A DNA stretch of 64,000 nucleotides from Rhodopila sp. (lineage in GTDB: Bacteria > Pseudomonadota > Alphaproteobacteria > Acetobacterales > Acetobacteraceae): NCBI GenBank assembly GCA_965200665.1, contig OZ241370.1, positions 2,075,709 to 2,139,708 on the forward strand, in the 5' to 3' direction. Below, piece after piece: positions 37,960 to 64,000 of this stretch. The number at the start of each line of letters is the position of its first letter. Within the stretch, counting starts at the first letter, position 1. The notes below the pieces were generated by a model. That model saw nothing but the letters and a program-made list of their open reading frames with translations. It was not told where the DNA came from and ran no database searches. The translations under genes and the position numbers were made by a program.

Positions 37960-38030
37960 TGATGCGCACGGTGATCCGACATCGCAAGGTTGGCTCAACC
38001 AAGTGTTCGGTTGGCGTCCTGCCAGAGGGG
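37960..38030 (-). ncRNA. Candidate structured cis-regulatory leader RNA upstream of the TerB-like gene
   Basis: CCAACC...GGTTG...CCAACC arrangement allows two alternative hairpins; no family match established. Confidence 0.3.
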
Positions 38031-38162
38031 CCCGGATCGTCTTGAAGATTACTGTGGTGTTGCTGAACCGCGATTCCAAGCCCGGCCCCGCTAATTTTCG
38101 TGTGCGCGCCGGGCAGGTTGCCATCCGGCAGCCCACCACGGACACGCAAAGCCGGGTTGAAC

Positions 38163-48779: not shown

Positions 48780-48856
48780 GGACCCGTAGCTCAGCTGGAT
48801 AGAGCGTCGCCCTCCGAAGGCGAAGGTCGCACGTTCGAATCGTGTCGGGTCCGCCA
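48780..48856 (+). tRNA. tRNA-Arg(CCG)
   Basis: GGACCCG/CGGGTCC acceptor stem, TCGCC-CTCCGAA-GGCGA anticodon arm, GTTCGAAT T-loop, CCA; 77 nt. Confidence 0.97.
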
Positions 48857-49280
48857 ATCAAATCAATATGTTGATCTAATTTTGTCCACACTGGAAGAGA
48901 CGGTAGCTACCGCATAGCTACCGGAAGCTGCCAAACCTAAAGGGGAAACCGCTTCCGGCGCCCCCAGTTTTGGACCAGCGTCTAGCGCGAACGATGGCGG
49001 ATGGCTCGAATCTGGTATGAAGCTGCATGCTTCCGTTATCGTCCCTGAACGACATTGCGCCACAGGGCGGCATTACCCTGTTAGGGCTCCGTGAAACGAC
49101 TACGGCCCGGATTGCATGGCATATCGAGCCGCGGAGGCCGATAACCGTCCTTTGGTCATCGGCAGGAGCGTCCACGGCGCTCAACCCATTCTCTCCGCCG
49201 CTGACGAGCCCACGGTTCGCGGCTAAGAATGGGTTTATCTTATCTTTCGTGGGCCCAGTCTGTCTCTCGTAGCCGAATCG

Positions 49281-49898
49281 TCAGTCCTGGAAATTGGCCT
49301 TAAGTTGCTCGGTCAGCAGATGGGTGATCCACGCCTCAAGGGGGGCCATAGCCTGGTCGACATTGTTTGATTGAGCATAGATAGTGTCAGCCTGCCGGAG
49401 TGCCTGTTGATATTGCTGCTTGTTTTGCACAATTTGTTGCACGACGGTGTTCTTCGCCGGAAGCAGTTCTCCGTGCCGAGCGCACATCACCAAATAAGAA
49501 ACGGCTCGGGAAGTTCTCCCATTTCCGTTGCGGAACGGGTGTATCCAGTTGATCCGCCAAAGGCAGTATGCCGACAAGTGTATCAGATCTCGCTTCTGCC
49601 AGTTATTATTCACATATCCGCACATAGTTCCCATAAAAGCGGGGACATCGGTCCAGTGTGCCGGCTTATGCGGTGAATTGGTCAACGTCACATCTGAAAC
49701 CCGATAATCACCCGCTTCCATTAAGAGCTTGGCCATTCCGATCCGATGCAAACGCCTTATCAGTTCCTCCGTCAAAACGAAATGAGCGCCACTTTTGGTG
49801 ACGCTCATCACTATCCTGTCTACCTCGGCCTGCTGATGGTAGAGATTTTGGAGCTTCTGTAAGAAGCTCGCTGCATCCTCGTTACCATCAGGATCCAT
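49281..49898 (-). CDS. Fic-domain protein
   Basis: WIHPFRNGNGRTSR motif; 205 aa. Confidence 0.9.
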   Translation of the reverse strand: MDPDGNEDAASFLQKLQNLYHQQAEVDRIVMSVTKSGAHFVLTEELIRRLHRIGMAKLLMEAGDYRVSDVTLTNSPHKPAHWTDVPAFMGTMCGYVNNNWQKRDLIHLSAYCLWRINWIHPFRNGNGRTSRAVSYLVMCARHGELLPAKNTVVQQIVQNKQQYQQALRQADTIYAQSNNVDQAMAPLEAWITHLLTEQLKANFQD

Positions 49899-49901
49899 TG
49901 A

Positions 49902-50090
49902 TTACCCGTCCTTGGGTTTCCGTGCGGCCTCCTCAACGGTACGGGCCGCCTTCATCGCATCAACAGTCACACGACTGTCAGAAAGATAGCCGTTCGCAAC
50001 GGCCAACGCAATACGATGCTCCTCGAGCTGCTCGTTGGTCATGCTTAGCCCCCGCGCACGCTCAAGCAATGCGGTTAGTTCGTGTTCCAT
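49902..50090 (-). CDS. Small helical protein upstream of Fic, putative antitoxin
   Basis: 62 aa, ends 3 bp before the Fic ATG; GAGAGG RBS-like sequence. Confidence 0.65.
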   Translation of the reverse strand: MEHELTALLERARGLSMTNEQLEEHRIALAVANGYLSDSRVTVDAMKAARTVEEAARKPKDG

Positions 50091-50673
50091 ATTATCGGCC
50101 CCTCTCCAACCGACTCTTGTATAGCGATGATTCGGCCGAACAAGCCATCACTTTTTCGTAATTTGACAGATTAGCTCTTGCTCAGAGGACGCGTCTTAGT
50201 ACAGGCGATCTACCGAGTCGTTGGATGAGAAGCGAAGCGAAAGCAATAAGTTACGATGGATAAGTCCTGTTCACTTGATGTTCCTGTCCTCGGTCCTTAT
50301 CGACTAACCGGTTGTCTGTTTTCTCAGCCTTTACCCCAACCCCGCCCCGTTGGCCGCGCCGTCGCTCACTCGACCGCCCGCCACGTATGCCCCACCGGCG
50401 CTGCCGGCAGTGGATGCCCGTGGCTCATGTCGACCCGGACACCATTCGGCCGGCCGAAGATGTTGATTTGCTCGTAGGCCCCCGCGGCCGGTACAGGATC
50501 GCCGGGAAAATGTTCTGGCCGCTGTGACACAGGCACCTCGTTTGCGGGGGACCGCCAGTATTGGTCAGTTTCGGGCCCGCCGCCATCGGCCCTCTGGATC
50601 CGCCTAACCATCTGCCTTGAACAAAGCCGCGCAACCCGTAGCCTTCCAGTTTGTTTCTGCCGGAAGGAGACTG

Positions 50674-50931
50674 ATGAACAATTCGCGCAACCTCCGCCAA
50701 CGAGCCGCACGCTATCGACGGATGCGGAGGCACATCACTGATCCTGCTGCCGATCGCGCCGCCTCGGATTTGGCCGATGAGATGGAACGGACAGCAGAAG
50801 AGATGGAGAGGCGGCTGCATATCCGCGAGCTCGCCCATGCCCTCTGGGTGTCGCACGGTCGTCCCCAGGGTCGCGACGAGGAGTTCTGGCTGGCCGCTGA
50901 ACGTGAGGTGGACATCCAGCGCAGCGGGTGA
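50674..50931 (+). CDS. DUF2934-containing small protein
   Basis: IRELAHALWVSHGRPQGRDEEFWLAAERE; AAGGAG RBS. Confidence 0.8.
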   Translation: MNNSRNLRQRAARYRRMRRHITDPAADRAASDLADEMERTAEEMERRLHIRELAHALWVSHGRPQGRDEEFWLAAEREVDIQRSG

Positions 50932-50933
50932 CC

Positions 50934-51311
50934 TCAGACCGGCTTCATGCGCGATGCGGCCAGCGACCCACGCACTGTCGCTATCAGCACAGCAAGATCG
51001 ACTGGCTTCAGCAATACTGGTCCGATTGCCGGGTCGGGATGCTTTGCCATTTCTGGGAAGCCCGTCACAAAGATGATTGGCAGCCCTGGACGGCGGTGCC
51101 TTGCCATCAATGCCACGGCCAGACCCTGCGGCGTCCCAGGTGGTAATTGGAGGTCGACAACCAAAAGCGCGCCGGCGCCATTGTCCAACTGAGGCGCCGC
51201 AGCAAAATAGCTGCCAAATCCAGCCGTCTGGTATCCTCCGTGATCGAGGGCTTGTTGGTAGGCGTAGCGGGTGGCCTCGTCATCCTCGATGATAAATATT
51301 CGGTTGGGCAT
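50934..51311 (-). CDS. Single-domain response regulator (REC)
   Basis: IFIIEDD, VVDLQLP, FVTG, LLKPVD; AAGGAG RBS. Confidence 0.85.
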   Translation of the reverse strand: MPNRIFIIEDDEATRYAYQQALDHGGYQTAGFGSYFAAAPQLDNGAGALLVVDLQLPPGTPQGLAVALMARHRRPGLPIIFVTGFPEMAKHPDPAIGPVLLKPVDLAVLIATVRGSLAASRMKPV

Positions 51312-51504
51312 CGTGATTGCTCCTTCGTTACAGGACCTCCTCACCGTCTAAGCCGTTCTCGGGGTCACCGGCCCGGCGTTGCAACTCTTGGATCAACTCC
51401 CGAATTGCGTTCAGCGCTCCGCGGTCAGTAGTGCCATAGGCAATTTGGCGCAGCCGCCGGATCTCGGCGCGAAGTGCCGCTACGTCTCGCATTGAAATGC
51501 CTCC

Positions 51505-51714
51505 CTATTGGGAGGGGAGCTGCAGCAGCGGATCTCGAGTTACGCCTTGATCCTGTAACACTCCGGCCTGGTCTTCCTCGGCCAGGGCACGCCACCTCGA
51601 TGCCACATAGAGCATGATCTCGTGGGTCTCCGGCAACACGTCACCGGCGGCCACTTTTTCACACTCTTTGGCGCGACTCAGGTAGTAACCTAGGAAATTA
51701 TGGCTGATGGCCAT
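51505..51714 (-). CDS. Small hypothetical helical-hairpin protein
   Basis: YLSRAKECEKVA...VASRWRALAEE; GAGAGG RBS. Confidence 0.6.
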   Translation of the reverse strand: MAISHNFLGYYLSRAKECEKVAAGDVLPETHEIMLYVASRWRALAEEDQAGVLQDQGVTRDPLLQLPSQ

Positions 51715-52204
51715 GCAACACCCCTCTCATCCGAGCGGGAGCGCTGGAGCGTCTCTCTGCCGCCGACGCTCAAAGATCGAGCCAGCGATATTTCTTAGGT
51801 AGGCTTTAAGAAGAGCAGTGGCAAGGAAGTTCTCGCAGCCGCCTCCGTCGGGTATATGGCATATATTACGGTCAACCAACAACTTACCGCAACTTGATGG
51901 TCGGCGAAAGGCTGTTAGCCGCCCAGGTGGAGATGCGCCGCCAGCCCCTGGCAATCGTCTCTCGCAGTCGGGACGCGATAGCCGATGGCCTGGCGCTACT
52001 GGAGCGGCTGCGGGTCAAACAAGAAGCTGAAGATGGAAGTCGGGCGTGGTTAATCGACGGCCGTTAAGTAATCTTCGCGTGGGGGGCGTCGAGGGCCACC
52101 GGCGACAGCTAACGCCCCGATGCGGCGCGATCTCAATAGCGGTAGCGTGCTCACCGATCGACCCGTAGCTGGACTTACGCCTATTACACGTCATAGTCGT
52201 GAGA

Positions 52205-52375
52205 ATGGCGTTATGTGTTCAAGAAATCCGAGCAAGGGCCTCGCAGTTTCGGGAGATGGCAGGGACTGGCACCGACATCAGGCTGCGGCAAGCTCTACTT
52301 TTGGTTGCGGAAGAATTCGAACAGGAAGCTAACCAATTGGAGCGTGATGCGAACCAGGATGATCAGCTGCCGTAG
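52205..52375 (+). CDS. 56-aa helical-hairpin protein (absent from the ORF track)
   Basis: MALCVQEIRARASQFREMAGTGTDIRLRQALLLVAEEFEQEANQLERDANQDDQLP, translated by hand. Confidence 0.55.
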   Translation: MALCVQEIRARASQFREMAGTGTDIRLRQALLLVAEEFEQEANQLERDANQDDQLP

Positions 52376-52559
52376 CCACCACTGCAGCCCGCGTAGCAAC
52401 GAGCCGCGCGCCCTCCCAGATCTCTACCGCATTCGCACCTTTCATATGTGCTTCTGGAGCGTGTTCCAGCGCCTCGAAATCGCTCTGGCGATCGACCTCG
52501 CTGGCCGGCCCCATGATCTTTCCATCAGGATCGATTGGGTAAATTCGATAGTGGCTCAT
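52329..52559 (-). CDS. Small hypothetical protein
   Basis: MSHYRIYPIDPDGKI...D..AL...AVEIWEGARLV, a recognisable alphaproteobacterial small-protein pattern. Confidence 0.65.
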   Translation of the reverse strand: MSHYRIYPIDPDGKIMGPASEVDRQSDFEALEHAPEAHMKGANAVEIWEGARLVATRAAVVATAADHPGSHHAPIG

Positions 52560-53336
52560 GGCTCCGGGCATGTAGGGTGGTTATCACGGAAGTGCGAATG
52601 TTTTTATGTTAATTCGAGATGCCCTCATCAGGGGCGACGCCAGATGGTTGAACCCATTCTGCATTTTAGCTCAGACCGAATGGCACCGCACCCGCTCTAC
52701 GACCGACCGATCCTTCTGCTCCGCTGCGGCGCAAAAGCCCGCCGGGTAGACCGTCGCTGCCGAGCCGGTGCACTCAACCAGCCGCCGCGGTGCAGGGCAC
52801 GCACCGGTCAGGCCAAAACCTGATGCCAGGTCACCGCCTGGCCGGCGGTATCGACGCAAAACTGCGCTCAATGAAATCAACGTTCTGCGCACCATGCCCG
52901 ATCGTAACGAAGGGTGCGCGAACTGAGCGGACCCCTGATAGCGCGCCACGGTGGCGCGCTTTCTGCGGGGCCGTAGCGATCGAGTTTTTTCCCAATCGGG
53001 AACAAACCCACTGCACCGCGATCGGCCGGAGGTTTCGCGGTAGCGCGCCGCAAAACTGCCGAATGCCTCACGCGGGCCAGTTTCTGCCTCGGTGGCAATA
53101 ACTCCGGACTGACGGGCGATACTGCCCGGCATACCCGCTCCCCAAATCGGGGAATCAACCCGGGATCGGTTTTCAGGACGACATCGCCGATGCGACGGTG
53201 GACTATCTGATAACCGTTATCAGACAGATGCGGCCAGGCGCGCACGGTGCGCGGCTGCTGAGCGGGCGGTCATCTGGGGATATTCCCCAGACACGGCTGT
53301 AGCCTGACCCTCCCCACCGTAGGGAGAGCCGCCGCC

Positions 53337-53365
53337 AAAGAAAAAGGCCGCCCTGTCGAGCGGCC
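53337..53365 (-). terminator. Rho-independent terminator on the minus strand
   Basis: GGCCGC-TCGACAGG-GCGGCC followed by TTTTTCTTT, downstream of the 54576-53525 operon. Confidence 0.7.
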
Positions 53366-53524
53366 GAGGGTTGGGGAAACATTACTCTGCTCAGGAGTTG
53401 CATTGAGCTACACTGGAACAACCGGAGCGGCCGATGGTTCCCTCGTTGGTTTCGCACCCACGCTCAAGACCGGCTCGTCGGCCGCCCCGAAGGACGGCCT
53501 GTGTTCAGCATAGGGGTGGGCGAT

Positions 53525-53839
53525 TCACCCACCCGGTTTCGCTCTATCCCACGCCTGGGCGACCCGATCCAAGAAGCCGGTAATCTCCGCATCGGTCAGA
53601 TCAGGCCGTACAGAGCGGACGAACGTGAGCGCGGGATCGTCGGTGCGCGGTCGGCTGACGGCCGGAGCGGCTTTGCTGCGAAAGGGAAGGACGCCGGCGG
53701 TCCTGCTGCGGCGCTCCCGGTCGGCACGCCACAGGACGCGCGTCTCGTTGATGATCTTGGTCAGGTCGCTTTCACCGTCTGCCGCACTGCCGCCGGCAAG
53801 CTCGCTCCGCTGGGAGAAGGAGAGAACCTTGGCGCTCAT
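53525..53839 (-). CDS. Hypothetical phage-like protein
   Basis: ATGA overlap with the upstream gene; 104 aa. Confidence 0.65.
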   Translation of the reverse strand: MSAKVLSFSQRSELAGGSAADGESDLTKIINETRVLWRADRERRSRTAGVLPFRSKAAPAVSRPRTDDPALTFVRSVRPDLTDAEITGFLDRVAQAWDRAKPGG

Positions 53840-54576
53840 ACCAGCCCCCGGCGCGCCATCTCGCCGGCCAACTCGGCATGCATTTGGTCGGACACGGCCT
53901 TGAACTTCCGCGTCGACTGCACTCGCCTCCGCAACTCGTCATCTGTCAGGAGGTGAGGTGTATCGAGGCGGTCACGCTCGGCTTGCTCGGCCGCCTTCTC
54001 CGCTGCGATCTTCGCCTCGATCGGAGCCCATCGGGCCTTGCTGGCCGCAAGATGCGCATCGACATCGGCTGCGGACATCGGTGGCGCCCAGTGCGCCGTT
54101 GAGCAGCTGCCGGCCCGGGGAGGCCAGACGAAGTCAGGTGCCAAGCCCTGAGCGAGCAGGACCATCATATCCTCGCCGCGGTCGTCGCACTTAATGCCCC
54201 CATCGAGATTGAGCTCGACCCAGATCAACGCCGCACGGGCCACAGCAGCGTGGCCAGCCGGCCCGGTTGCGGGTGCGCAATCCTCGATCAAGTCAGCGAG
54301 GCGATCGACCTCGTCGCCCAGCCATTCATATCGGGCGTTGTTGGGGCCGAAGTCTGGCGCGTAGTCGTCGTGGTCGAGCAGTAGATATCGCTCGGTCTCG
54401 GTCGCCACCATCTGATCGCACAGGCTGATCAGGGCGGCGTTGGGATCAGGGGCCCGCACAACTCGCGGACCCTTTGCCAGCACTGGCGCCGTCAGCCCAG
54501 CGACGATCGCCGCGGCGCTGAAGCTGAGTGCGGATCGGCGGGTCGGTGTGGTATTGGTTTGGGTAGCCGTGGGCAT
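53836..54576 (-). CDS. Hypothetical phage-like protein with twin-arginine-like N-terminus
   Basis: TRRSALSFSAAAIVAG...PDPNAALISLC; GGGAG RBS; divergent from the XRE gene. Confidence 0.7.
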   Translation of the reverse strand: MPTATQTNTTPTRRSALSFSAAAIVAGLTAPVLAKGPRVVRAPDPNAALISLCDQMVATETERYLLLDHDDYAPDFGPNNARYEWLGDEVDRLADLIEDCAPATGPAGHAAVARAALIWVELNLDGGIKCDDRGEDMMVLLAQGLAPDFVWPPRAGSCSTAHWAPPMSAADVDAHLAASKARWAPIEAKIAAEKAAEQAERDRLDTPHLLTDDELRRRVQSTRKFKAVSDQMHAELAGEMARRGLV

Positions 54577-54730
54577 GGATAACTCCCGTGCTTTTGGTTA
54601 GGCCGGTCGGGGTGTTTGCGGCACCTCGGTCGGTCGCAACCGGATCCGGTTGGGCTTTCGCCTTGCGAAGTTGGCAGAATTTCTGTAGCATCACCTTATT
54701 CCTGGCGCAACAGGAATTCTGTGAGGTTAC

Positions 54731-55267
54731 ATGATGTCAGTTATCTCAGCGTCACTTTGTCGAGCGGCGCGAGGCTTGCTAGGGTGGTCACAGGGGGATT
54801 TGTCCCGCTCGTCCGGCGTCTCGGAAAAATCGATCGCTGACTTCGAACGGCAGGCGAGAGTGCCATATGAGCGAACCGTCCGGGACCTGGAGGAGGCTTT
54901 CGCAGCGGCGGGCGTGAAATTCACCAACGGTGGATCGCCCGGCATGAGGCTAACCGAAAGCCGATCTCCTAAAACGCATGGGCAGTTCGTCGGCGTCCTA
55001 AGAAGCTATGAGCAGCGGAAGCTGCCGGCCCTCGGTGTTCAACTAACGCGCCGCGGACCAACGTTCGGCTTTAAGTTCGAATTCTTCGAGGACGCCACCG
55101 TTATCTTGACTTTGAATGGAATAGAGTTGGGGCAAGCACGTTGGATAGATGGCCGTTGTGAGTTTGACCCTTCACTGTCAGCCACCCCTCCCCAAGCGAC
55201 TGACGAGGATCTTCAGAACTGGGTGACGCTCGCCTACAACCGCAGCATCACCACCGGCCATCAATGA
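54731..55267 (+). CDS. XRE-family HTH regulator with about 100-aa C-terminal extension
   Basis: CRAARGLLGWSQGDLSRSSGVSEKSIADFE...AFAAAGVKF. Confidence 0.85.
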   Translation: MMSVISASLCRAARGLLGWSQGDLSRSSGVSEKSIADFERQARVPYERTVRDLEEAFAAAGVKFTNGGSPGMRLTESRSPKTHGQFVGVLRSYEQRKLPALGVQLTRRGPTFGFKFEFFEDATVILTLNGIELGQARWIDGRCEFDPSLSATPPQATDEDLQNWVTLAYNRSITTGHQ

Positions 55268-55354
55268 CTTCGACGCCGGGCGTCGAGTTCACCTCCACGA
55301 AGGGCGGGTTCCAGTCTTCTGGAAATCCGATGCGCAACGCTATTATATGAAGCC

Positions 55355-55513
55355 ATGATCACACCCAACGACAAGCACATCACAGACGCAGTAGACCATC
55401 TTGCGTCTGCCGAAACTGACCTTCGGGCAGCTGGATTACCCGATATCGCGGAGGAAGTGGCGCGGATTAGGCGGAGTCTGGAAGATGGCCTAGAGACGGC
55501 GCCTGTTTCTTAG
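55355..55513 (+). CDS. 52-aa hypothetical protein (absent from the ORF track)
   Basis: MITPNDKHITDAVDHLASAETDLRAAGLPDIAEEVARIRRSLEDGLETAPVS, translated by hand. Confidence 0.4.
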   Translation: MITPNDKHITDAVDHLASAETDLRAAGLPDIAEEVARIRRSLEDGLETAPVS

Positions 55514-55539
55514 CCTGTGAGTTTCTGGCCGGTTCGCTC

Positions 55540-55632
55540 CTGGCCGCCACGCAGCTCGCCTTCAAAGCGGCCGGGGTCGAGTTCATCCCGGAGAACGGTG
55601 GTGGCGCTGGGGTAAGACTGCGGAAGGGGTGA
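55540..55632 (+). pseudogene. Remnant: C-terminal tail of an XRE regulator
   Basis: LAATQLAFKAAGVEFIPENGGGAGVRLRKG*, with no HTH or start upstream. Confidence 0.7.
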
Positions 55633-55851
55633 TGGACCGGTCAAGGTCGCAGACCGAAACATCCCGTAGCTTGTAATAAATCCGCGCTTGCGCAACTGTT
55701 TCGATGTAAGCTTTATATCGGCGCAAAATATCCACTTACGGGGCATGTATACGCACCTCAACGAACGTCATTGCAGGGATGTTTGTGCTCGCGCTGGCCG
55801 CGTGCGCCCAACCGGGAGCAGAGTCTGCGTCGAATGCCTCTTGGAGAGGGC

Positions 55852-57240
55852 ATGAGAATTAATCGCGAGGATCCGTCGTGGACAGCGCCCCACTCGGTCC
55901 CCGAGCCGCGCGATGACATCGTGTTGCTGGCGACCGCATGGCTCTCTGAGTTTGCTGATGCGAAAACGTGGAGGCAGCGATTAGCGTCGACCAGAGACCA
56001 TTTTCAGGCCGCGAAGTCGCGATGGATGAATGGAGAAATGGCGCCCCTGTATGACCCAACCGACAGAGCCGCCTGGTATGTCTTTCAGGGCAATGCCTAC
56101 GCCAATGACCGTATGAATTGGGTCCCGGAGGAGGCGGTCCGTATTGTGCCTATCCTCACCAGAATTGGCACAGAACAAGAGAGGCTCATTGCCATTCCTG
56201 GTTCAGAGGCTCGGACATCCCGATTGATGAACGCGGATCGCAGTCAGCCCGATGGGGGCTTGTTCGAGTTGCTTGTGGCTATTGCGTATAGCCGCAACGG
56301 CTGGGATACCGAGTTTGCCCGCGAGCGTCCGGGGGTTGGACGGATGCATGACATCAACGTCAAAAAGGGCCGTCGGTCGTGGGCTGTCGAGTGCAAGCGA
56401 ATGGACCGCTCAGGTTATGAGGCGCGCGAGAGGGTCCGTGGCGAAAATCTTGCCAGGCCCGTCCATGACCTAGCCTTGGACGCCAGCAGATCGATCTTTA
56501 TGCAGGTTGCGTTTGACGCCGAGCTCGACGCGCTGCCAGACGACTATCTCTCCCGCCGTGCTTTTGCCTATCTTCGAGGCTCCGGGTCGGACTACTGGTC
56601 GGACGGGGAGGGCATGGGCATTATTCGCGAGATCGACTGGTCACTGACCCACAAGGTTCTTGCCGTGGACGACGTTTATTATGGATCCAGCCGCATGATT
56701 GAACTCCTGGTCGGCTACTACAATCACGAATTTGCTCACACGATGGCTGCCAAATGGAGACCGGCTCATAAAAGACCATTTTGGGCGGAAGCAGTTTATC
56801 AGGCTAGTGTGGTCAGTTGGCGCAATCGGTCTATGACCGCCATACAGAAGAAGGCACGGCATTTTCGCTCTGTGGTGGCTAAGGCGGCAGCTCAACTCCC
56901 AAAGAACCGCCCGGGAGTAGTCCACGTCGGCGTTGAGTCTTGGGGCGGCGGGGCCGTGGATGCTGCTCGACATGTATTCAACCTGCTTGAGGCGACAGAT
57001 TTCGATCCAGGCGACAGTCGACTGCGATGGGTGTACGGCACTTACTTCGCGCCAGAGCTCACTACTCGTTCGGACGAGACTTGGGCCGTTGAGGAAACCA
57101 CCATTTCTTATCGCGTTAGCCGTCACCAGACGCCCGAACCATTACCCCATCATATGCTGTTGACTCCTGAGGCGAAGATAAATGAAGGGGTTCATTGGGA
57201 TCCTGACAGCCAGAGGCCTTTGATCCGGCAGTCCTTCTGA
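55852..57240 (+). CDS. Uncharacterised protein with PD-(D/E)XK nuclease-like motif
   Basis: LFELLVA...GRMHDINVKKGRRSWAVECKR; GGAGAGG RBS; atypical codon use. Confidence 0.7.
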   Translation: MRINREDPSWTAPHSVPEPRDDIVLLATAWLSEFADAKTWRQRLASTRDHFQAAKSRWMNGEMAPLYDPTDRAAWYVFQGNAYANDRMNWVPEEAVRIVPILTRIGTEQERLIAIPGSEARTSRLMNADRSQPDGGLFELLVAIAYSRNGWDTEFARERPGVGRMHDINVKKGRRSWAVECKRMDRSGYEARERVRGENLARPVHDLALDASRSIFMQVAFDAELDALPDDYLSRRAFAYLRGSGSDYWSDGEGMGIIREIDWSLTHKVLAVDDVYYGSSRMIELLVGYYNHEFAHTMAAKWRPAHKRPFWAEAVYQASVVSWRNRSMTAIQKKARHFRSVVAKAAAQLPKNRPGVVHVGVESWGGGAVDAARHVFNLLEATDFDPGDSRLRWVYGTYFAPELTTRSDETWAVEETTISYRVSRHQTPEPLPHHMLLTPEAKINEGVHWDPDSQRPLIRQSF

Positions 57241-57466
57241 CAAGCGCACGTCGGCTGTGATCCGCTCACGGGCATTCACGACACGGAGCAGGAGCGGCTT
57301 GGAGTGTCGTCGCGCCTGTTCGCCTCGGGCACGCTGGGCCTCGGGGCGGTCCATTCACGAACCGGGCGGGGCGACCGGACCGAAAGGGCGATGGGTCCAT
57401 CGCCGAGCGAGAGCTTGCGGTCAGCCGTCCGGAAATCCAGAAACCGCGGCGGAAGGCGCGTTGAGC

Positions 57467-57541
57467 GTCCAGCCCGCCCTCGAAGCCGACGCCGGCGAGT
57501 TCATCCCCGAGACCGGTGACGCCCGGTGCCTACGGTTAAGG
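57467..57541 (+). pseudogene. Second, more decayed XRE-tail remnant
   Basis: VQPALEADAGEFIPETGDARCLRLR. DNA GAGTTCATCCCCGAGACCGGTG versus GAGTTCATCCCGGAGAACGGTG in the 55540-55632 remnant. Confidence 0.55.
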
Positions 57542-57656
57542 GTATTTGGCCGCCTTTCTGGCTGAACAACAAATCTTAGTCGTATCGCTCTGAGTAAAGG
57601 GCTATCTGAAGTGACGCTGCCTGCTATGCATGTGGCGAAATTTGGGAGTGAAGCTG

Positions 57657-58706
57657 ATGGAAGCCTACGCGATCTGGAACAACAAGGGCGGAACTGGGAA
57701 GAGCACAATCACCTTCCACATAGCGTCGCGGTTTGCACAAAAAAACCCGGATCGTAACGTCCTGGTGGTAGACCTCTGTCCCCAGGCGAATGCTTCTATG
57801 CTGTTGCTTGGTGGCGGCATCGCCGGCGAGAACCGCGTTCTTGAGCTGTGTTCCAAAGCGACACCGCAGAGTGTTGTGGGTTATATCAGCGACGCAATCC
57901 TCAACCGCAAGACACCGGATCTGGCCAGCTACAGCATTGCTGTTCAGAAATCAAACGATCAGATGCCGGCTAATCTTCACCTTCTGAGCGGTGATGGTAA
58001 CCTGGAGCTGCTGGCCGGTGCACTGAATGATGAGGCAAACAGAACGCCGTTTCCGGGCTTGCCTGACCCATGGAGGTGGGTCCACGAAATCTTTACCCGA
58101 CTCACAGATGACCTCGCCGACAAGCCGTGGACGGTGTTTTTTGATACGAACCCTTCTTTTTCAGTATATACGGAATTAGCAATTTGTGGCGCAACGAGGT
58201 TACTCGTCCCGGTCAACGCTGATGATTCTTCTCGCGTAGCCGTTAAGGCCCTCTTTGCATTACTATATGGCACAGTTCCTGCCCATCCCTTCTTCGGCGG
58301 ATATACCTTCGCCGCGAAGGTGCATTCTCGGACTATGAATATTCCGAAAGTACATTTGGCCATCGGTAACAGATTTACTCAATACAAGGGGGCTGCCGCC
58401 GCGTTTGCCGCATTTAGTGAAGCGACTGCGGATCAGCTATGGGGTGAGTATTCAGCAAATCCTTTGCGCTTTGCGCCGCGAGCGAGCAAGCCAACCGATC
58501 GAGCATCGTTTCTCCAAGATTACGTTGGTGAGTTGCGTGACTTCAATACAGCGGGAGTGGTAGCCGCCCATCATGGATCGCCGCTATCCAAGATGCGGCA
58601 GGATTACTACTCTGTTCATAACGACCCAGAGGTCAAGGTCAATCGACAACAGATCAACGCAGGGCTCGATGCGATCGACAAGGTCGTTGCACGACTTGAT
58701 CCGTGA
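57657..58706 (+). CDS. ParA/AAA_31-family ATPase (orphan)
   Basis: NNKGGTGKST deviant Walker A, VDLCPQANAS, FFDTNPS; GGAG RBS. Confidence 0.85.
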   Translation: MEAYAIWNNKGGTGKSTITFHIASRFAQKNPDRNVLVVDLCPQANASMLLLGGGIAGENRVLELCSKATPQSVVGYISDAILNRKTPDLASYSIAVQKSNDQMPANLHLLSGDGNLELLAGALNDEANRTPFPGLPDPWRWVHEIFTRLTDDLADKPWTVFFDTNPSFSVYTELAICGATRLLVPVNADDSSRVAVKALFALLYGTVPAHPFFGGYTFAAKVHSRTMNIPKVHLAIGNRFTQYKGAAAAFAAFSEATADQLWGEYSANPLRFAPRASKPTDRASFLQDYVGELRDFNTAGVVAAHHGSPLSKMRQDYYSVHNDPEVKVNRQQINAGLDAIDKVVARLDP

Positions 58707-58892
58707 CTTTCCACAGCGAGCCTCCGGAGCGACACTACGCTCTGTGCCTGCCCTCTGACGGTCGGGTTCGGTATGGGATATTGATGCCCCGTCGCAGACT
58801 GCTGCGTTGATGCCGCTACCGCTCCAGCACGTTCTCAACCAGGAAAGCCATTCGAGAGGAAGTGCACAATCAATCGCCAAAAGGATGGAATT

Positions 58893-59270
58893 ATGCCGAC
58901 CAAGATGGAGCTTAATTCGGTACTGTCAGATGACAGGAACTCGGTTACGATGACGCTGGTAATGGATGGGCTGCCGCTGGGGCACATCATCTTGGAAATA
59001 CCAGATGTGGAGGACCTCATCCATCGTATGGCCACTGTTCGGGCCGCTATGATCGAACCAGTGCCTTCAGAGATTGAACCGGCGGCGCGGATTATTGCCG
59101 CAGATAACCCGGCGTGGCGGGTGAAGATTCCAACCTCATCACCGACTCCAGGGATTTTGCTGGCCCTGCGCCACCCCGGGCTCGGATGGCTGATAAATCT
59201 GTTGCCGCGGGAAGAGGCTCATAACTTAGGTCAATCGTTGTTAGGCCTATCGAAAGAACTTGAGCGATAA
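58893..59270 (+). CDS. Hypothetical protein
   Basis: 125-aa ORF with AAGGA RBS. Confidence 0.6.
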   Translation: MPTKMELNSVLSDDRNSVTMTLVMDGLPLGHIILEIPDVEDLIHRMATVRAAMIEPVPSEIEPAARIIAADNPAWRVKIPTSSPTPGILLALRHPGLGWLINLLPREEAHNLGQSLLGLSKELER

Positions 59271-59370
59271 AACACATATACACACTTGCTCCACTTGCAG
59301 TTGATAAGGACATGTCAATTCGCTATAGGCAACGGCGTCTCGATCCGAGCGGACGCGACGGGGTCGTTAG

Positions 59371-61026
59371 CCCGCATTTCTCACAGCGTGCGCCGATCGC
59401 AAGTCGTTCGTTCTGACACGATATCAACATCGCGGACTTGGAGCTCTGTCCGGGTCCGCCGGAGGACTTCCAGGCACGATTCTCCGGACGCGGTGTCTGA
59501 ACCGCGTCGGTGAGGCGTTATGGCGGCTTGCGGTGTCTGCTTCGTGCCGGCTCAGGCGGCCGCTCGTCGCAGCATCGCATGTGCCAGGGCAAACTCATGC
59601 TGCCAAGGGCACGCCGATGCCATGGCGATGGTGACCCGGCGCATGCTGACCCTGACCAGGGCGCCGATCTTCAGCAGTTTCAGCCGGATCGTGCCGCAGG
59701 TCGCAGTGGCGAACTGCGTGTGCGCCAGGCCGATCCGGCGCAGCCCACACAGCAGCACGTAAGCCAACGACGCGAACCACAGCCGCAACTGGTTGGCCTG
59801 CATCGTCGCCGCAGAGGTGCGATCAGCGAACAGGTCAAGCTGGCATTCCTTGATCCGGTTCTCCATCTCGCCCCGAGCGCAATAGATTGTTTCGTATAGC
59901 GACGGCGCAGCGACCTCGGCCGTCGGCAGCGAAGTGACGATGAAGCGAGGGTTGGCTTCGCCCTGCGTCCATTCAGCCTTGCCGATGACACGTCGGGTTC
60001 GGCTCCAACTTTCCAGTGTAGACCAGCGGAAATCCTTGAACCGGCGGGCCGGTTTTCCGGTCGCTTCGGCCTCGGTGCGCGCAGTTGCCATCTCCGTCTT
60101 GATCTCCGCCGCCAGCCGGTCGTTACGTGCCAGGCCGAACACGTAGTCCACCCGGTTGGCCTCGCACCATGCCATCAACGCCTCGCGGCAGAAGCCGCTG
60201 TCGGCCCGCAGCAGAATGCGCACGCGGGGCCAGCGCGCCCGGATTTGGCTGATGATGCGGGTCATCTCCTCGACCGAACCGGCCGCGGCGTCGATATTGG
60301 AGCGCCGCAGCTTCGCGGCCAGCAGATGCCGTCCGCAGAACACGTAAAGCGGCAAATAGCAGTAGGTGTCGTAATAGCCATGGAAGAAGCGGCCCTCCTG
60401 GTGACCGTGCAACGGATCATCCGTGGCATCCAGATCGAGCGTGATCTGGCGCGGTGGCCTGGCGTGCGCGTCGAGGAACAGATCGACCAGCAGCGCCTCA
60501 ATGGCGCCTGTGTCGGCGGCGATTTTGGCGTAACGAGTGGGTTCGGCCCGGCTGAGCTCCAGGCGGTTGAGCGTGCTCTTGCCGGCCAGCGGCGCGCAAT
60601 CGCCGCGGCTGGCCTGTAGCTTGCCGGCCAGCACTGCCATCACCGGGTCGTGGCGCAGTTCGTCATGATCGATCAGGTCCTCGTAACCAAGGGCGATGCC
60701 AACGATCCGTTGCGTCACCAGCGTCTGCACGCTGTGTTCGACGAAGTCGCTGTTGCGGCTGTCCTTGAAGCAGGCAGCAAAGCGGCGGGTCAGTCCGATG
60801 ACGCGATCAGCCGCTCCCAGCAGCAACGCGCCGGCGTCGCTGGTGATGCGCCCACCGTCAAATGAGGCGACGACCGCACGGTTTTCGACAGGTGCAAATT
60901 CGAACAACGTTGGGCTACAGTCTGTCGGCATCGGGGAACTCCTCTGCTCAGCGGTAAGGCTTTGTTGCAGAAGAACTTTCGCTCAATCAGAGCCCCGATG
61001 CACCTGATTCGTGTGAGAAATGCGGG
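59371..61026 (-). mobile_element. IS1380-family insertion sequence, 1656 bp
   Basis: Perfect 15-bp TIRs CCCGCATTTCTCACA (59371-59385, 61012-61026) and flanking TTAG duplication (59367-59370, 61027-61030). Confidence 0.95.
59552..60931 (-). CDS. tnp: IS1380-family DDE transposase
   Basis: FDGGRITSDAG, LDLDATDD...HGHQE, LRADSGF, YCARGEMENRIKE. Confidence 0.95.
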   Translation of the reverse strand: MPTDCSPTLFEFAPVENRAVVASFDGGRITSDAGALLLGAADRVIGLTRRFAACFKDSRNSDFVEHSVQTLVTQRIVGIALGYEDLIDHDELRHDPVMAVLAGKLQASRGDCAPLAGKSTLNRLELSRAEPTRYAKIAADTGAIEALLVDLFLDAHARPPRQITLDLDATDDPLHGHQEGRFFHGYYDTYCYLPLYVFCGRHLLAAKLRRSNIDAAAGSVEEMTRIISQIRARWPRVRILLRADSGFCREALMAWCEANRVDYVFGLARNDRLAAEIKTEMATARTEAEATGKPARRFKDFRWSTLESWSRTRRVIGKAEWTQGEANPRFIVTSLPTAEVAAPSLYETIYCARGEMENRIKECQLDLFADRTSAATMQANQLRLWFASLAYVLLCGLRRIGLAHTQFATATCGTIRLKLLKIGALVRVSMRRVTIAMASACPWQHEFALAHAMLRRAAA

Positions 61027-61357
61027 TTAGCACCGTCGATAATCATGTCCCCGCTCCGAAACCACAACGCCGCCGGCGACCCCGGATCGGCCGGCGGCGG
61101 CAGCGTCATCCTGAACAGTGCCACGTCATCGGCCTGGTCGAGGCGGGTGAAGGCAATGCCTGGCGCGGCCGGGTAGCAGTCGCCCTCGTCCATGAGCCTG
61201 TTCATCCGAGCCGGATCGATGGACCAATCGAACGTCAACAGCTCACGCAGCACAGCGCAAACCCGGCAGCCGATTACGTCCCGCTTGCCGGCCACGACCC
61301 GGTAGACCGGAGCAGCGGCCTCCGCGGGCACCGGCGATGTTGATTGCAGTAGTCGGC

Positions 61358-63256
61358 TCACAGCGGCATTGCTTGGTGAACCCGAACCGTCGCCGGGCCC
61401 GTGCCGGTCGTGGTGGTGATGGTCTGCGTCCCGGGCGCAGCCTGAACCTTGATCGTGACCTCGTGCTTGGTATCGCCGCTCGTCGGAGCCGGCCGGTTCG
61501 CATCGCCTGCCTCTCGGCGGATGATCTGGTCGAGCCGATCGCGCGTCGCGCTGTCATCGTCGGCGCCGAGGCCTGCCCACCGCTCAGCGCCCATCCCGCG
61601 GATCGTGTTTTCGCCCGGGATATCGGCCGGCCGCTCATACTGCGAGTTGACCACGTACGCCGATGTCGCAGCATTCGGTGCGGTCTTCAGGAGATCGCCG
61701 GCGCCCTTTTCGCTGTGGCTCAGTTCCCACTGGACGAAGCGCATCTGCTCATCGAGCGTCGAGCCGCGGATGTCGTGGCCGGCCCATTTTGCGAAGGCAG
61801 CCTGCCGATCCGGATGCCATTGCGCGAGGCCGTAAGCCTTGCCGTTGTCATCGGTCCGGCCGGGGTCGAAAGCGCTCTCACGTTCGAGATTTGCCGTAAT
61901 GCCGGCTGCCTGGTCGTGCGTCCATCCCTGACCCTCGAAGAACTGCATCATCCGCTGGCCGGTGGCGGGATCGCCGGTCGCCGTGCTGGAAGAGCTGCCA
62001 CCGCCGAACAGGCCTCGAACCCAGGTCTCCAGCGTGCCGTGCTGGCCAAAGAAGCCAGGGCTGGTCGCCGGTTTGTTGAGCAACGGGTTGGATGGCGTAT
62101 CGCCAGAGAGCAACAGTGGCGCGGCCAGGCTTGCGACAGCCCCGCCGGAGAGGCCAACCGCCGCTCCAAGCCAGGACGGGATCTGGATCGCCGCGAGACG
62201 GAGCAGCGCGTTCTCTAGCCTGGCGATCGGCGGGATCATCCGCGATACGGCCAGCGGAACGCCGACCTCCAGCGCCGTGTTCCAGCCGACGGTTGATGTG
62301 ACTGCCTTGTCGACCACACCGCCGAGGGCGCCAAACGCCTTGCCGTAGTCGTCGCCCCATTTCTTGACATCCAGGGCGAGAAGTTCCCGGTTCTTCCCGA
62401 TGTAGTCGGCGGTGATCACCATCAGTCGCGACAACGCGGGGCTGACTGCCACGGAAACCGAGTTTCCGAGCCCGCGGAACGCCATCTCCAGTTGGGTCTG
62501 CGATTCGCTGAAAGTGCGGGCAGCGCGGGCGCCGGCCTCAGTATTGACCCCATACTTCACGGCCAACGCCGCATACCGCTCCATCCCGGCCGAGCCCTGT
62601 CGCAGCCACGGCAGCAAGTCTTCTGCCGCTCCGCCAAAGAAGACGGTAGCGGCGCGGGCCTGGAGCGATGGGTCTGGGATTTTGGCAATCGCATCGGCCA
62701 GCTTCGGCAGGACCGCCGTCGCACGCAGCGCGTGGCCCCGACTGTCTTCGAACGCAACGCCTAGGCTGCGGAAATAGGTCAGCGCCTCCATGTTCCGGCC
62801 GCCGACCGTGTCGGTCATTGTGTCCTGCAGGGTGCGGATGCCGCTCGCGGCCGCTTGCGCCGATGATCCCGCAAGTTGAGCGGACCCTTCAAGGGCCGAG
62901 AGCCGCTCCACGGTCGCCCCGACACGCGTCGCGTCGAAACTGAGCGCCTGCGTCGCTCGGGCCCAGTCCGACGTCATCTTGGCAACGCCGGCAACGCTCA
63001 ATGCCGATGTCAAGGCGGTGAAAGGAGTAAGCGAACCAGCCAAATGGTCACCGGTGCGGATGGCAGTCGCACCGAGGGCGGCCATGGCCTTGTTCAGCTT
63101 CGTAACGCCGGAGGCGTCGGACAGCCTCGCAAGTGACTTGGTGACCTTCGTCGCAGGCGCGGTGATTCCAGCGAGACGCTTCGCCACCGCGTCAATCGCG
63201 GCACTGGTCGCATCGACCGCGCTGATCCGGACGACAAGGTTATTGGCAGCGGCCAT
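61358..63256 (-). CDS. Short tape-measure-like protein with phage-tail-lysozyme domain
   Basis: N-terminal VRISAVDATS, Ala-rich helical body, then GWTHDQAAGITANLERES...YGLAQWHPDRQ...EQMRFVQWEL...YERP. Confidence 0.8.
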   Translation of the reverse strand: MAAANNLVVRISAVDATSAAIDAVAKRLAGITAPATKVTKSLARLSDASGVTKLNKAMAALGATAIRTGDHLAGSLTPFTALTSALSVAGVAKMTSDWARATQALSFDATRVGATVERLSALEGSAQLAGSSAQAAASGIRTLQDTMTDTVGGRNMEALTYFRSLGVAFEDSRGHALRATAVLPKLADAIAKIPDPSLQARAATVFFGGAAEDLLPWLRQGSAGMERYAALAVKYGVNTEAGARAARTFSESQTQLEMAFRGLGNSVSVAVSPALSRLMVITADYIGKNRELLALDVKKWGDDYGKAFGALGGVVDKAVTSTVGWNTALEVGVPLAVSRMIPPIARLENALLRLAAIQIPSWLGAAVGLSGGAVASLAAPLLLSGDTPSNPLLNKPATSPGFFGQHGTLETWVRGLFGGGSSSSTATGDPATGQRMMQFFEGQGWTHDQAAGITANLERESAFDPGRTDDNGKAYGLAQWHPDRQAAFAKWAGHDIRGSTLDEQMRFVQWELSHSEKGAGDLLKTAPNAATSAYVVNSQYERPADIPGENTIRGMGAERWAGLGADDDSATRDRLDQIIRREAGDANRPAPTSGDTKHEVTIKVQAAPGTQTITTTTGTGPATVRVHQAMPL

Positions 63257-63508
63257 TTAGCCGATCCCCGCCCGCTTGAACGCGGCCCTCCATCTGGATG
63301 CGATTTCTCGGGAGGGGAAAGGACTTTCAGCGTTGCTCGACGGTGCCTGCGCGCGTTCGAATGCCGCGGTCCACCTCGCGGCAATTGCTGCCTGACGGAT
63401 CACCGGAGCAGCCGGCGGTGCGGCCACTTTCGGATGGGCGGGTGATGGCGCTGGTGCGGCAGCATGGCGGTTGACGATTACCAGCGGCATCGCTGACGAG
63501 GCGCTCAT
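63257..63508 (-). CDS. Small Pro/Ala-rich protein with duplicated IA(A/S)RWxAAFxRA motif
   Basis: ATGA overlap upstream and TAA-ATG junction with the tape-measure gene. Confidence 0.65.
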   Translation of the reverse strand: MSASSAMPLVIVNRHAAAPAPSPAHPKVAAPPAAPVIRQAAIAARWTAAFERAQAPSSNAESPFPSREIASRWRAAFKRAGIG

Positions 63509-64000
63509 GCCGCGCCTCCCAGCTCGGCCACCGCCCGATCCGCTACGCCGGCGGCCGGGTTGATGTCGACCCGCTGCGGCTGCGAGTGGTCGCCGATCCG
63601 GGAAACTTGCGGATTGAACGTTCCCGCCGGCGGCTTCCATGGGCCTTCGCGCGCGTCGATTTCGGCGTTGTGAAGTGCCGCGGTCCGATTTGCCGGGGAA
63701 GTTTCGTATGGCTTTGCGGCCGGTCGGGGAGGGACAAAGGTCGCGTGCTGGGCCGCCCGACGACGGAGGTCAGCGAGCGGTTTCAGCAGATCGGCCAGCG
63801 CAGTGGCTGACGGATCATCCCGCCATGTGGCAGCGAGGTCGATGCGCGTGCCGTCAGCCAGGTCCGCGCGGCCCGTACCGATGATGGCCTGCTGTCCGGG
63901 AGCGGGGGAGGGGATCGTCGTTGCGCCGAGGAAGCCCGTGCCCTGGCTCAGTGTTCCCAGGGACGACGCAACGGCGTGGCTGCGCATCAAGACCTTAACC
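63505..64000 (-). CDS. Hypothetical phage-like protein, possibly 5'-truncated by the window edge
   Basis: Frame stays open to the window end; coupled to the next gene by ATGA. Confidence 0.55.
   Translation of the reverse strand, partial: VKVLMRSHAVASSLGTLSQGTGFLGATTIPSPAPGQQAIIGTGRADLADGTRIDLAATWRDDPSATALADLLKPLADLRRRAAQHATFVPPRPAAKPYETSPANRTAALHNAEIDAREGPWKPPAGTFNPQVSRIGDHSQPQRVDINPAAGVADRAVAELGGAA

Follow-up and report, generated by a model that had tools for sequence, protein, structure and literature searches.

The stretch of DNA analysed here (the window) is 64,000 nt long and comes from Rhodopila sp. (Acetobacteraceae), in which it corresponds to C1:2075709-2139708 within a single contig of 5.6 Mb. 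At its right-hand end lies an operon of four translationally coupled genes, all on the minus strand, one of which encodes a tape measure protein (TMP), and this operon belongs to an integrated island that we considered as a putative phage satellite. Positions past the last letter of the window are given as window-equivalent coordinates, the position in the sequence labelled L001 being the coordinate minus 63500. In the order p317, RW-repeat protein, TMP, p124, the genes are the following (lengths in amino acids, aa).

63505-64458 (L001 5-958), minus strand: p317, 317 aa, a core gene of the element family; its 3' part, 63505-64000, is inside the window
63257-63508, minus strand: RW-repeat protein (RW), 83 aa (127 aa in the longest reading), directly upstream of the TMP gene
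61358-63256, minus strand: TMP, 632 aa, with Pfam and PHROG matches, phage and metagenomic homologues and a mosaic of segments
60987-61361, minus strand: p124, a small CxxC protein whose GTG start overlaps the TMP stop

A preliminary description, made from the letters of the window alone, had the four genes coupled by ATGA, TAA-ATG and ATGA junctions. Read from the sequence, the first two are as described (ATGA between p317 and the 83-aa open reading frame, ORF; TAA-ATG between this ORF and TMP), but the third is GTGA, with GTG as the start codon of p124; at the homologous TMP/p124 junction of the related locus L015 the two genes overlap by 4 nt and the start codon is ATG. The same description had seen a tape-measure-like protein of 632 aa with a lysozyme domain, which agrees with the Pfam domain Phage_lysozyme2 and the PHROG tape-measure families found in it, and neighbours unlike tail proteins, none of which gave any Pfam or PHROG match. 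Both of the IA(A/S)RWxAAFxRA repeats that it reported in the 83-aa ORF are present (IAARWTAAFERA and IASRWRAAFKRA).

The island and its borders

The 3' end of a tRNA-Arg(CCG) gene occurs as an exact 52-bp direct repeat at 48807-48858 (left attachment site, attL) and at 72764-72815 (attR; L001 9264-9315), the second copy 139 bp beyond the integrase start. These perfect attachment (att) repeats bound an island of 23.9 kb, which includes the four genes and has the following further backbone features.

48780..48858, plus strand: tRNA-Arg(CCG) with attL, the exact 52-bp repeat (ARAGORN, Rfam)
64632-64859, minus strand: p75, with no Pfam or PHROG assignment
64895-65323, minus strand: p142, with no Pfam or PHROG assignment
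65320-66177, minus strand: Nu1-like small terminase gene terS, 285 aa, phrog_57 terminase small subunit (E 3e-17)
67034-69676, minus strand: primase-helicase, 880 aa, PriCT_2/DUF5906; phrog_1156 (E 2e-63)
71333-72625, minus strand: tyrosine integrase, 430 aa, intact; Pfam (E 3e-20) and phrog_1 (E 1e-54)

The gene for p104 lies between those for TerS and the primase-helicase, and genes for three small proteins between those for the primase-helicase and the integrase. From the integrase to p124 all genes are on one strand, and after them come an insertion sequence (IS) and about 10 kb of unrelated cargo.

Between the att repeats, the Pfam, PHROG and PADLOC scans gave no match to a capsid, portal, large terminase (TerL), tube, sheath, baseplate or lysis protein. 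We also searched the whole genome by tblastn with the TAC_7, DNA_circ_N, gpP, gp45, gp46, J and gp48 proteins of a Mu-like tail cluster (contig L018); no remnant of such a cluster was found, and the island yielded only the TMP. The preliminary description had left room for a full tail cluster just beyond the window, and what lies there instead is the small terminase, the primase-helicase and the integrase. The annotation past 64 kb for capsid, primase, terminase and integrase, which it had proposed, thus returned integrase, primase and TerS, and no capsid protein or TerL. No island protein had a Pfam or PHROG match to the sid, psu or delta families, and Rfam detected nothing in the element besides the tRNA.

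One difference between the assembly and the public DNA runs X1 and X2 was recorded in this part. At L001 6931-6978 (70431-70478) the full-depth X1/X2 contigs have CTGGAAA for 46 bp of the assembly, a 39-bp in-frame difference in a 109-aa ORF between integrase and primase, to be explained by an assembly error or by a variant.

The tape measure protein

The Phage_lysozyme2 domain occupies residues 434-561 of the TMP (Pfam, E 1.3e-28), whereas the Pfam match to PhageMin_Tail is weak and below the cut-off. PHROG tape-measure families 9570 (E 1.6e-69) and 2276 (E 1.9e-40) match nearly the whole length. The protein consists of a conserved helical N-part (residues 1-290), a variable middle with a hydrophobic segment at about 363-385, the lysozyme domain and a C-terminal end common to myophage TMPs.

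Relatives of TMP, p124 and p317 were obtained only through protein-cluster look-ups; no locus came from pattern-based scans of genome, metagenome and viral contigs. The best TMP matches in isolated phages are those of Acetobacter phage phiAP1 and Komagataeibacter phage phiKM1 (35-38% identity), the homology spanning the helical N-part and the Phage_lysozyme2 domain. In both phages the TMP gene is in a Mu-like contractile-tail cluster (sheath, tube, chaperone, TMP, DNA-circularisation protein, gpP, gp25-like and J-like proteins), which in phiAP1 stands behind a lambda-like head module (large terminase, portal, protease-like protein, D, E). Closer homologues, with 44-56% identity, are the metagenomic TMPs P0003, P0005, P0006, P0009 and P0012, again in Mu-like tail clusters (contigs L008, L012-L014 and L018). 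In all these phages and contigs the TMP is found between a TAC_7 chaperone and DNA_circ_N, gpP, gp45, gp46, J and gp48, whereas the island has none of these.

When the TMP was compared segment by segment, the closest relative changed along the protein.

Residues 1-290 (N-part): satellite L015, 74% identity
Residues 291-400 (middle): satellite P0002 and phage P0012, 55% and 51% identity, respectively
Residues 433-565 (lysozyme domain): phage P0003, 74% identity
Residues 566-632 (C-terminal end): phage P0003, 68% identity

The lysozyme part of the L015 TMP is, in turn, 41% identical to that of the island and 84% identical to that of phage P0009. Judged by these segment identities, the satellite TMPs are mosaics and not one diverged clade, which indicates a continuing exchange of segments with the TMPs of Mu-like-tail phages, the presumed helper group; such an exchange is what would be expected if satellite TMPs must fit those tails. 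Satellite TMPs measure 561-639 aa and those of the helper type 561-645 aa, so that, the lengths being about equal, tail length would not change.

The proteins p317, RW and p124

For p317, AlphaFold predicted a long antiparallel helical hairpin at residues 18-168 (helices 18-71 and 75-168), with a predicted local distance difference test score (pLDDT) of around 90-96. Foldseek against BFVD gave only unspecific coiled-coil matches, none at E<=0.001, and profile searches of the PDB returned no match for the p317 and p124 families. As modelled, p317 is not a tube, hub or baseplate fold. Its family, counted at E<=1e-3, comprises 90 cluster representatives.

The RW protein of the island is a deletion variant of a family of 124-162 aa that was found at every related locus reaching that position. 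Longer members hold a central segment, RRWAxVxxSxAFxxxPxxAAHLLA, and match phrog_6382 (E 3.8e-7); this segment aligns (BLASTP E 0.002; hhalign E 2.8e-5, probability 74%) with a 200-aa protein of phiAP1 whose gene lies between those for the protease-like and the decoration protein. The scaffold gene of phage lambda has the same position. The island copy has lost the central segment and retains the N-terminus and the two C-terminal RW repeats. The resemblance to scaffold proteins that the preliminary description had suggested for the 83-aa ORF is weakly backed by its longer homologues, but the segment which aligns is the one deleted here. By tblastn against phage genomes no match to the RW protein was obtained.

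Without the IS, p124 has a native form of 128 aa that ends in ...ARIETPLPIAN and agrees with homologue P0065. It had no match in Pfam, PHROG, PADLOC or the PDB, and its AlphaFold model (pLDDT 40) was unusable. The p124 gene is present in 6/6 loci that carry a TMP and in 0/2 that do not, which points to a partner specific to the TMP; p124 may act as a chaperone or may inhibit the TMP of the helper.

Related loci and the variable slot

Seven metagenomic loci share the p142-p63-p317-RW backbone where the contig extends that far, each being judged only as far as its contig reaches. Their gene orders, with proteins given by length in aa, are the following.

L015 (NCBI metagenome contig): Nu1-like terS, 147, 115, 64, 314, 148, TMP of 637, truncated p124, HD-domain protein
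L006/L007 (ENA): primase-like protein of 1046, terS, GpA-type TerL, 114, 158, 63, 299, an uncalled RW ORF of 158, 203, TMP of 575, 131
L019 (Logan): end of RW, 202, TMP of 589, 126
L036 (JGI): 303, 129, TMP of 561, 131, then AbiGi and helix-turn-helix (HTH) cargo
L038: AlpA (PF05930), 197, primase-like protein of 1042, 191, 165, 63, 319, RW; the operon ends there, with no TMP
L037: ...228, 162, 63, 53, 318, RW of 162, a Mu gpP-like baseplate protein of 398, an ORF of 115; no TMP

The slot behind the backbone is thus filled by TMP and p124 in the island and five other loci, holds a Mu gpP-like protein in one and is empty in one; two of the TMP loci additionally have a tail-completion protein. 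In L006/L007 the 203-aa protein matches phrog_1924 (minor tail) and phrog_27 (tail completion). The gpP-like protein of L037 shares 70% identity with the gpP encoded on phage contig L008, where TMP P0005 is also encoded. A survey of homologous loci for consistent absence of tail genes around the TMP had been proposed in the preliminary description, and the tail-less module does recur, at the five other loci. Identity of p317 to the island protein is 66% in L015, 52% in L036 and 34% in L006; L015 has a TMP 50% and a p124 68% identical to those of the island, while the identities across loci are 47-68% for p124 and 41-53% for p142. At the position homologous to terS, L006 matched phrog_57 (E 1e-19) and L015 matched phrog_57 and 141, with Phage_Nu1 below the cut-off; three members therefore have a terS of the phrog_57 type, and L006 also a GpA-type TerL.

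From these gene orders, the conserved core is p142-p63-p317-RW, situated behind a replication gene and terS, and the next position takes one or two tail parts. On sequence comparison, the slot genes are close homologues of genes of the Mu-like contractile-tail clusters of temperate myophages.

Among 400 sampled genomes from this order, three others had p317 homologues in small recombinase islands, one behind a DUF927 primase beside a resolvase and two beside an integrase, near a phrog_1924 tail-completion-like gene; no TMP was found near the p317 homologues in these three genomes. Four relatives have islands at the same tRNA-Arg, and no TMP homologue was found in these islands or elsewhere in those genomes. 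Islands are common at the tRNA-Arg(CCG) site, a hotspot in general: in many genomes of the genus, another, partial tRNA-Arg(CCG) 3' end lies 8-17 kb from the tRNA (e.g. G417:C169, G401:C2, G416:C42, G410:C27). A search for an artificial attB across 60 of the genus's genomes showed no empty site, the right flank not being conserved there.

Cargo and insertion sequence

The remaining part of the island, about 10.4 kb (48.9-59.4 kb), has a lower GC content (0.57-0.60) and unrelated genes. Its features, and those of the IS which separates it from the operon, are given below.

48859..59365: accessory cargo half, by composition and by Pfam and PADLOC scans; no virion genes
49281-49898, minus strand: Fic/DOC protein, with SoFic and PDC-S04 matches in PADLOC
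54731-55267: XRE-type HTH protein, in the cargo half
57630-58706: ParA-like ATPase, in the cargo half
59372-61025, minus strand: IS element of 1654 bp, with inverted repeats CCGCATTTCTCACA and target duplication GTTAGC
59552-60931, minus strand: DDE_Tnp_1_4 transposase of the IS (Pfam E 1.5e-156)

Further cargo comprises a response-regulator receiver, a DUF2934 protein, a 489-aa unknown protein and other unknowns. The cargo behind the morphogenesis operon differs from member to member, with Fic/DOC in the island, AbiGi in L036 (4498-6186) and an HD-domain protein in L015 (6121-7503), and by analogy the region looks like a defence-gene hotspot of the kind found in satellites of the P4 and phage-inducible chromosomal island (PICI) type.

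The last 39 nt of the present p124 ORF belong to the IS, which replaces the last 16 native codons of p124. The assembly contains the IS, as does run X1 at about 5x depth, whereas in X2 (same organism label) and X3 (a lichen metagenome) the contigs lead straight from 59365 to 61026; its absence from this site in X2 and X3 indicates a recent, strain-specific insertion. A 60-nt probe of the IS end located a second copy at about C1:2299869. Outside the island and unrelated to it, the window has a terC RNA motif at 37967-38043 on the minus strand (Rfam 43.9 bits, gathering score 39.9).

A probable integrated satellite with its own tape measure

Considering all the above, the element is most likely an integrated phage satellite, whose four genes are the distal end of its morphogenesis operon and supply its own TMP to the borrowed tail of a helper phage. 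It brings the integration and replication functions that a satellite has of its own (integrase, primase-helicase, att repeats); scans and tblastn found it without a full set of virion and lysis genes, as in elements that depend on a helper; and its TerS (phrog_57) corresponds to the packaging redirection of PICI-type satellites. The TMP of a tailed prophage would be surrounded by tail genes or their remnants, which the island does not have. In PLE-type satellites (PLE, PICI-like element) the TMP is encoded by the satellite, and here it is full-length, has the lysozyme domain and is conserved in five sister loci. A precedent is PLE11, a Vibrio cholerae satellite of myophage ICP1, which replaces the TMP, the tail assembly chaperone (TAC) and the baseplate hub of ICP1 (Mathur, Boyd et al., Nature 2026, PMC12987554). 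The suggestion of the preliminary description that a satellite supplies its own TMP to a hijacked tail is supported by this precedent, by the integrase/primase/terS island without virion genes and by the recurrence of the tail-less module.

The mechanism that we propose would start when a phiAP1-like helper, with a lambda-type head, a GpA terminase and a Mu-type contractile tail, replicates in the cell, upon which the satellite would excise and replicate with its own primase. The satellite TerS would then steer the helper TerL to satellite DNA, and the satellite TMP would replace that of the helper in helper tails, giving chimeric tails whose lysozyme domain and membrane-active TMP middle would serve the entry of satellite DNA into the next cell. 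The helical hairpin p317 and RW, the latter akin to a scaffold-position protein, may act on head assembly, and p124 would accompany the TMP as its specific partner, in either of the two roles named above.

Candidate helpers and points that weigh against a satellite

Several observations weigh against this interpretation. No matching helper is resident, and no second TMP homologue occurs in the genome. The prophage at C1:3700000-3746000 is a lambda-like siphophage with a GpA terminase and a 1380-aa ORF in the tape-measure position, and the one at C1:2636000-2660100 (L035) is a myophage with other terminase and tail families. No excision signal was found in the public DNA runs X1 and X2. Within the island, the assignment of terS rests on a PHROG profile only, with no Pfam match and no tblastn match in phages; no Phage_AlpA match was detected, even at E 0.1; and no function could be assigned to p142, p75, p317, RW and p124. 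Finally, with p124 clipped by the IS and RW carrying an internal deletion, this copy of the island may be partly disabled.

As for the two prophages, the siphophage has a GC content of around 0.52 (host, 0.64) and also contains ORFs of 536, 701 and 1173 aa; L035, about 490 kb from the island, contains TerL (phrog_38), portal, major head protein, sheath (phrog_23) and baseplate wedge genes. We rejected both as helpers: their tail type does not match the TMP, and neither joins a GpA-type head to a Mu-like tail. A third locus, C1:4646000-4668000, with the GC content of the host, has tube genes, a sheath gene at 4.666 Mb and ORFs of 1622, 829 and 872 aa; it was likewise rejected, since by its gene sizes it looks like an (extracellular) contractile-injection-system cluster. 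A non-resident, phiAP1-like temperate myophage is the probable helper.

The read depth of the island is about 0.63x that of the left flank in X1 and X2. We did not take this step at attL as excision, because the right flank is equally low, and the step therefore reflects a mixture of strains. Run X10, of poly-A RNA, yielded no usable reads over the operon.

Alternative explanations

The alternative that survives best, although we consider it rather unlikely, is a defence or interference island, in which the TMP-lysozyme, together with p124, would be a dominant-negative decoy that poisons the assembly of myophages with Mu-like tails and would protect the population instead of aiding transfer. 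Such an island would agree with the defence-type genes in the cargo and in the relatives (Fic/DOC here, AbiGi in L036, the HD-domain protein in L015) and with the lack of a resident helper, and satellite interference with helper tail assembly is documented for Rta of PLE11 (PMC12987554) and for the satellite-encoded Tai systems (PMC11364771). However, the TMP is full-length, its lysozyme domain is intact and its C-terminal end resembles that of phages, which argues for a working part rather than a decoy, and the conserved terS, the TerL of L006 and the tail-completion and gpP-like proteins of the sister loci point to particle production. The two roles are, moreover, not exclusive, as PLE11 illustrates.

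Decidedly improbable is a decayed prophage, a cryptic remnant of which the TMP would be the last survivor of a deleted tail cluster. The IS that adjoins the operon and clips p124, the internal deletion in RW and the unrelated cargo in half of the island could be read in this sense; yet the IS is missing in other samples, and the island has an intact integrase and perfect att repeats. The tail-less order is kept at five other loci with 34-74% protein identity and intact coupled ORFs, the TMP neighbours differ from those in phages, and the tblastn search described above detected no pseudogene remnant of TAC_7, DNA_circ_N, gpP, gp45, gp46, J or gp48.

An autonomous minimal virus or non-tailed particle, in which capsid or vertex proteins would have gone unrecognised in p317, p142 and others, with the TMP-lysozyme as an internal protein for ejection and for piercing peptidoglycan, could appeal to the five conserved proteins without known fold or family and to the own TerL of L006, but it is very improbable, and this alternative from the preliminary description found no support: there is no portal or HK97-fold candidate, p317 is predicted to be a helical hairpin and not a capsid fold, the island is without TerL, and the tail-completion and baseplate gpP proteins of the sisters make sense only with a contractile tail.

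Comparison with known satellites and significance

With the satellite as the preferred interpretation, the closest parallel is that of the PLEs, and it is a likeness of strategy only. Like PLE11, which builds chimeric tails from helper parts, the island is a putative satellite without tube, sheath or fibres and with its own TMP; and the Mu gpP-like protein in the TMP slot of L037 resembles the swap of the baseplate hub by PLEs. In PLE11, its own TMP, chaperone and hub allow it to escape from its own inhibitor of the helper TMP, Rta, and putative tmp genes have been listed in PLE-like elements and in some capsid-forming PICIs (PMC12987554). Unlike PLE11, the island resides in a lichen-associated alphaproteobacterium and not in Vibrio, the helper presumed for it is a temperate phage that combines a lambda-like head with a Mu-like tail, its TMP has a lysozyme domain and about the helper-type length, and it has no recognisable TAC or Rta.

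The island resembles Gram-negative PICIs and P4-like satellites in its unidirectional layout with a terminal integrase. Like them, it has an SF3-type primase-helicase and a small terminase, lies at a tRNA att site, joins a variable cargo region to a backbone of about 12 kb and lacks structural and lysis genes; AlpA, as in Gram-negative PICIs, is present only in the sister L038, and none was detected in the island. It differs from them by having no match to the sid, psu, delta, cpm, ppi or rpp families and, with respect to the described gene sets, by the TMP and five family-specific proteins (p142, p63/p75, p317, RW, p124). The P4 protein Sid is helical, like p317, but no homology between the two was found.

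Satellites outside Vibrio that have a TMP gene together with terS, as the island has, are the EPIPs of Mycolicibacterium (PMC12822802). Those satellites, however, also encode capsid, scaffold and head-tail adaptor, while the island family is without a recognisable capsid gene; EPIPs have a serine integrase and longer tails, the island a tyrosine integrase. The principle is therefore already known from PLE11, and what is new is the unrelated lineage, its own unknown proteins and a slot with different tail parts in different members.

In genome annotation, an orphan tape measure beside an integrase and a primase is no ground for calling a broken prophage. For the family, p317, RW, p124 and p142 are candidates for new assembly-hijacking functions. 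As a tentative extension, which we consider unlikely as a whole, the island would represent an undescribed alphaproteobacterial satellite lineage with a plug-in slot for tail parts, in which p124 would be an Rta-like blocker of the helper TMP, letting only tails with the satellite TMP be completed, and p317 and RW would remodel the lambda-type head; if this is true, the satellite would reshape the virion at both ends, using proteins without a known fold. Manipulation of tail assembly by satellites was shown experimentally only in 2026, in the Vibrio PLEs, and has been suggested to be widespread. The island and its seven relatives are an independent family in lichen and soil Alphaproteobacteria, in a different phylum-level setting, and the fact that the borrowed part varies among them, together with the recombination between satellite and helper-type genes, supports the swapping of single tail parts as a general satellite strategy.

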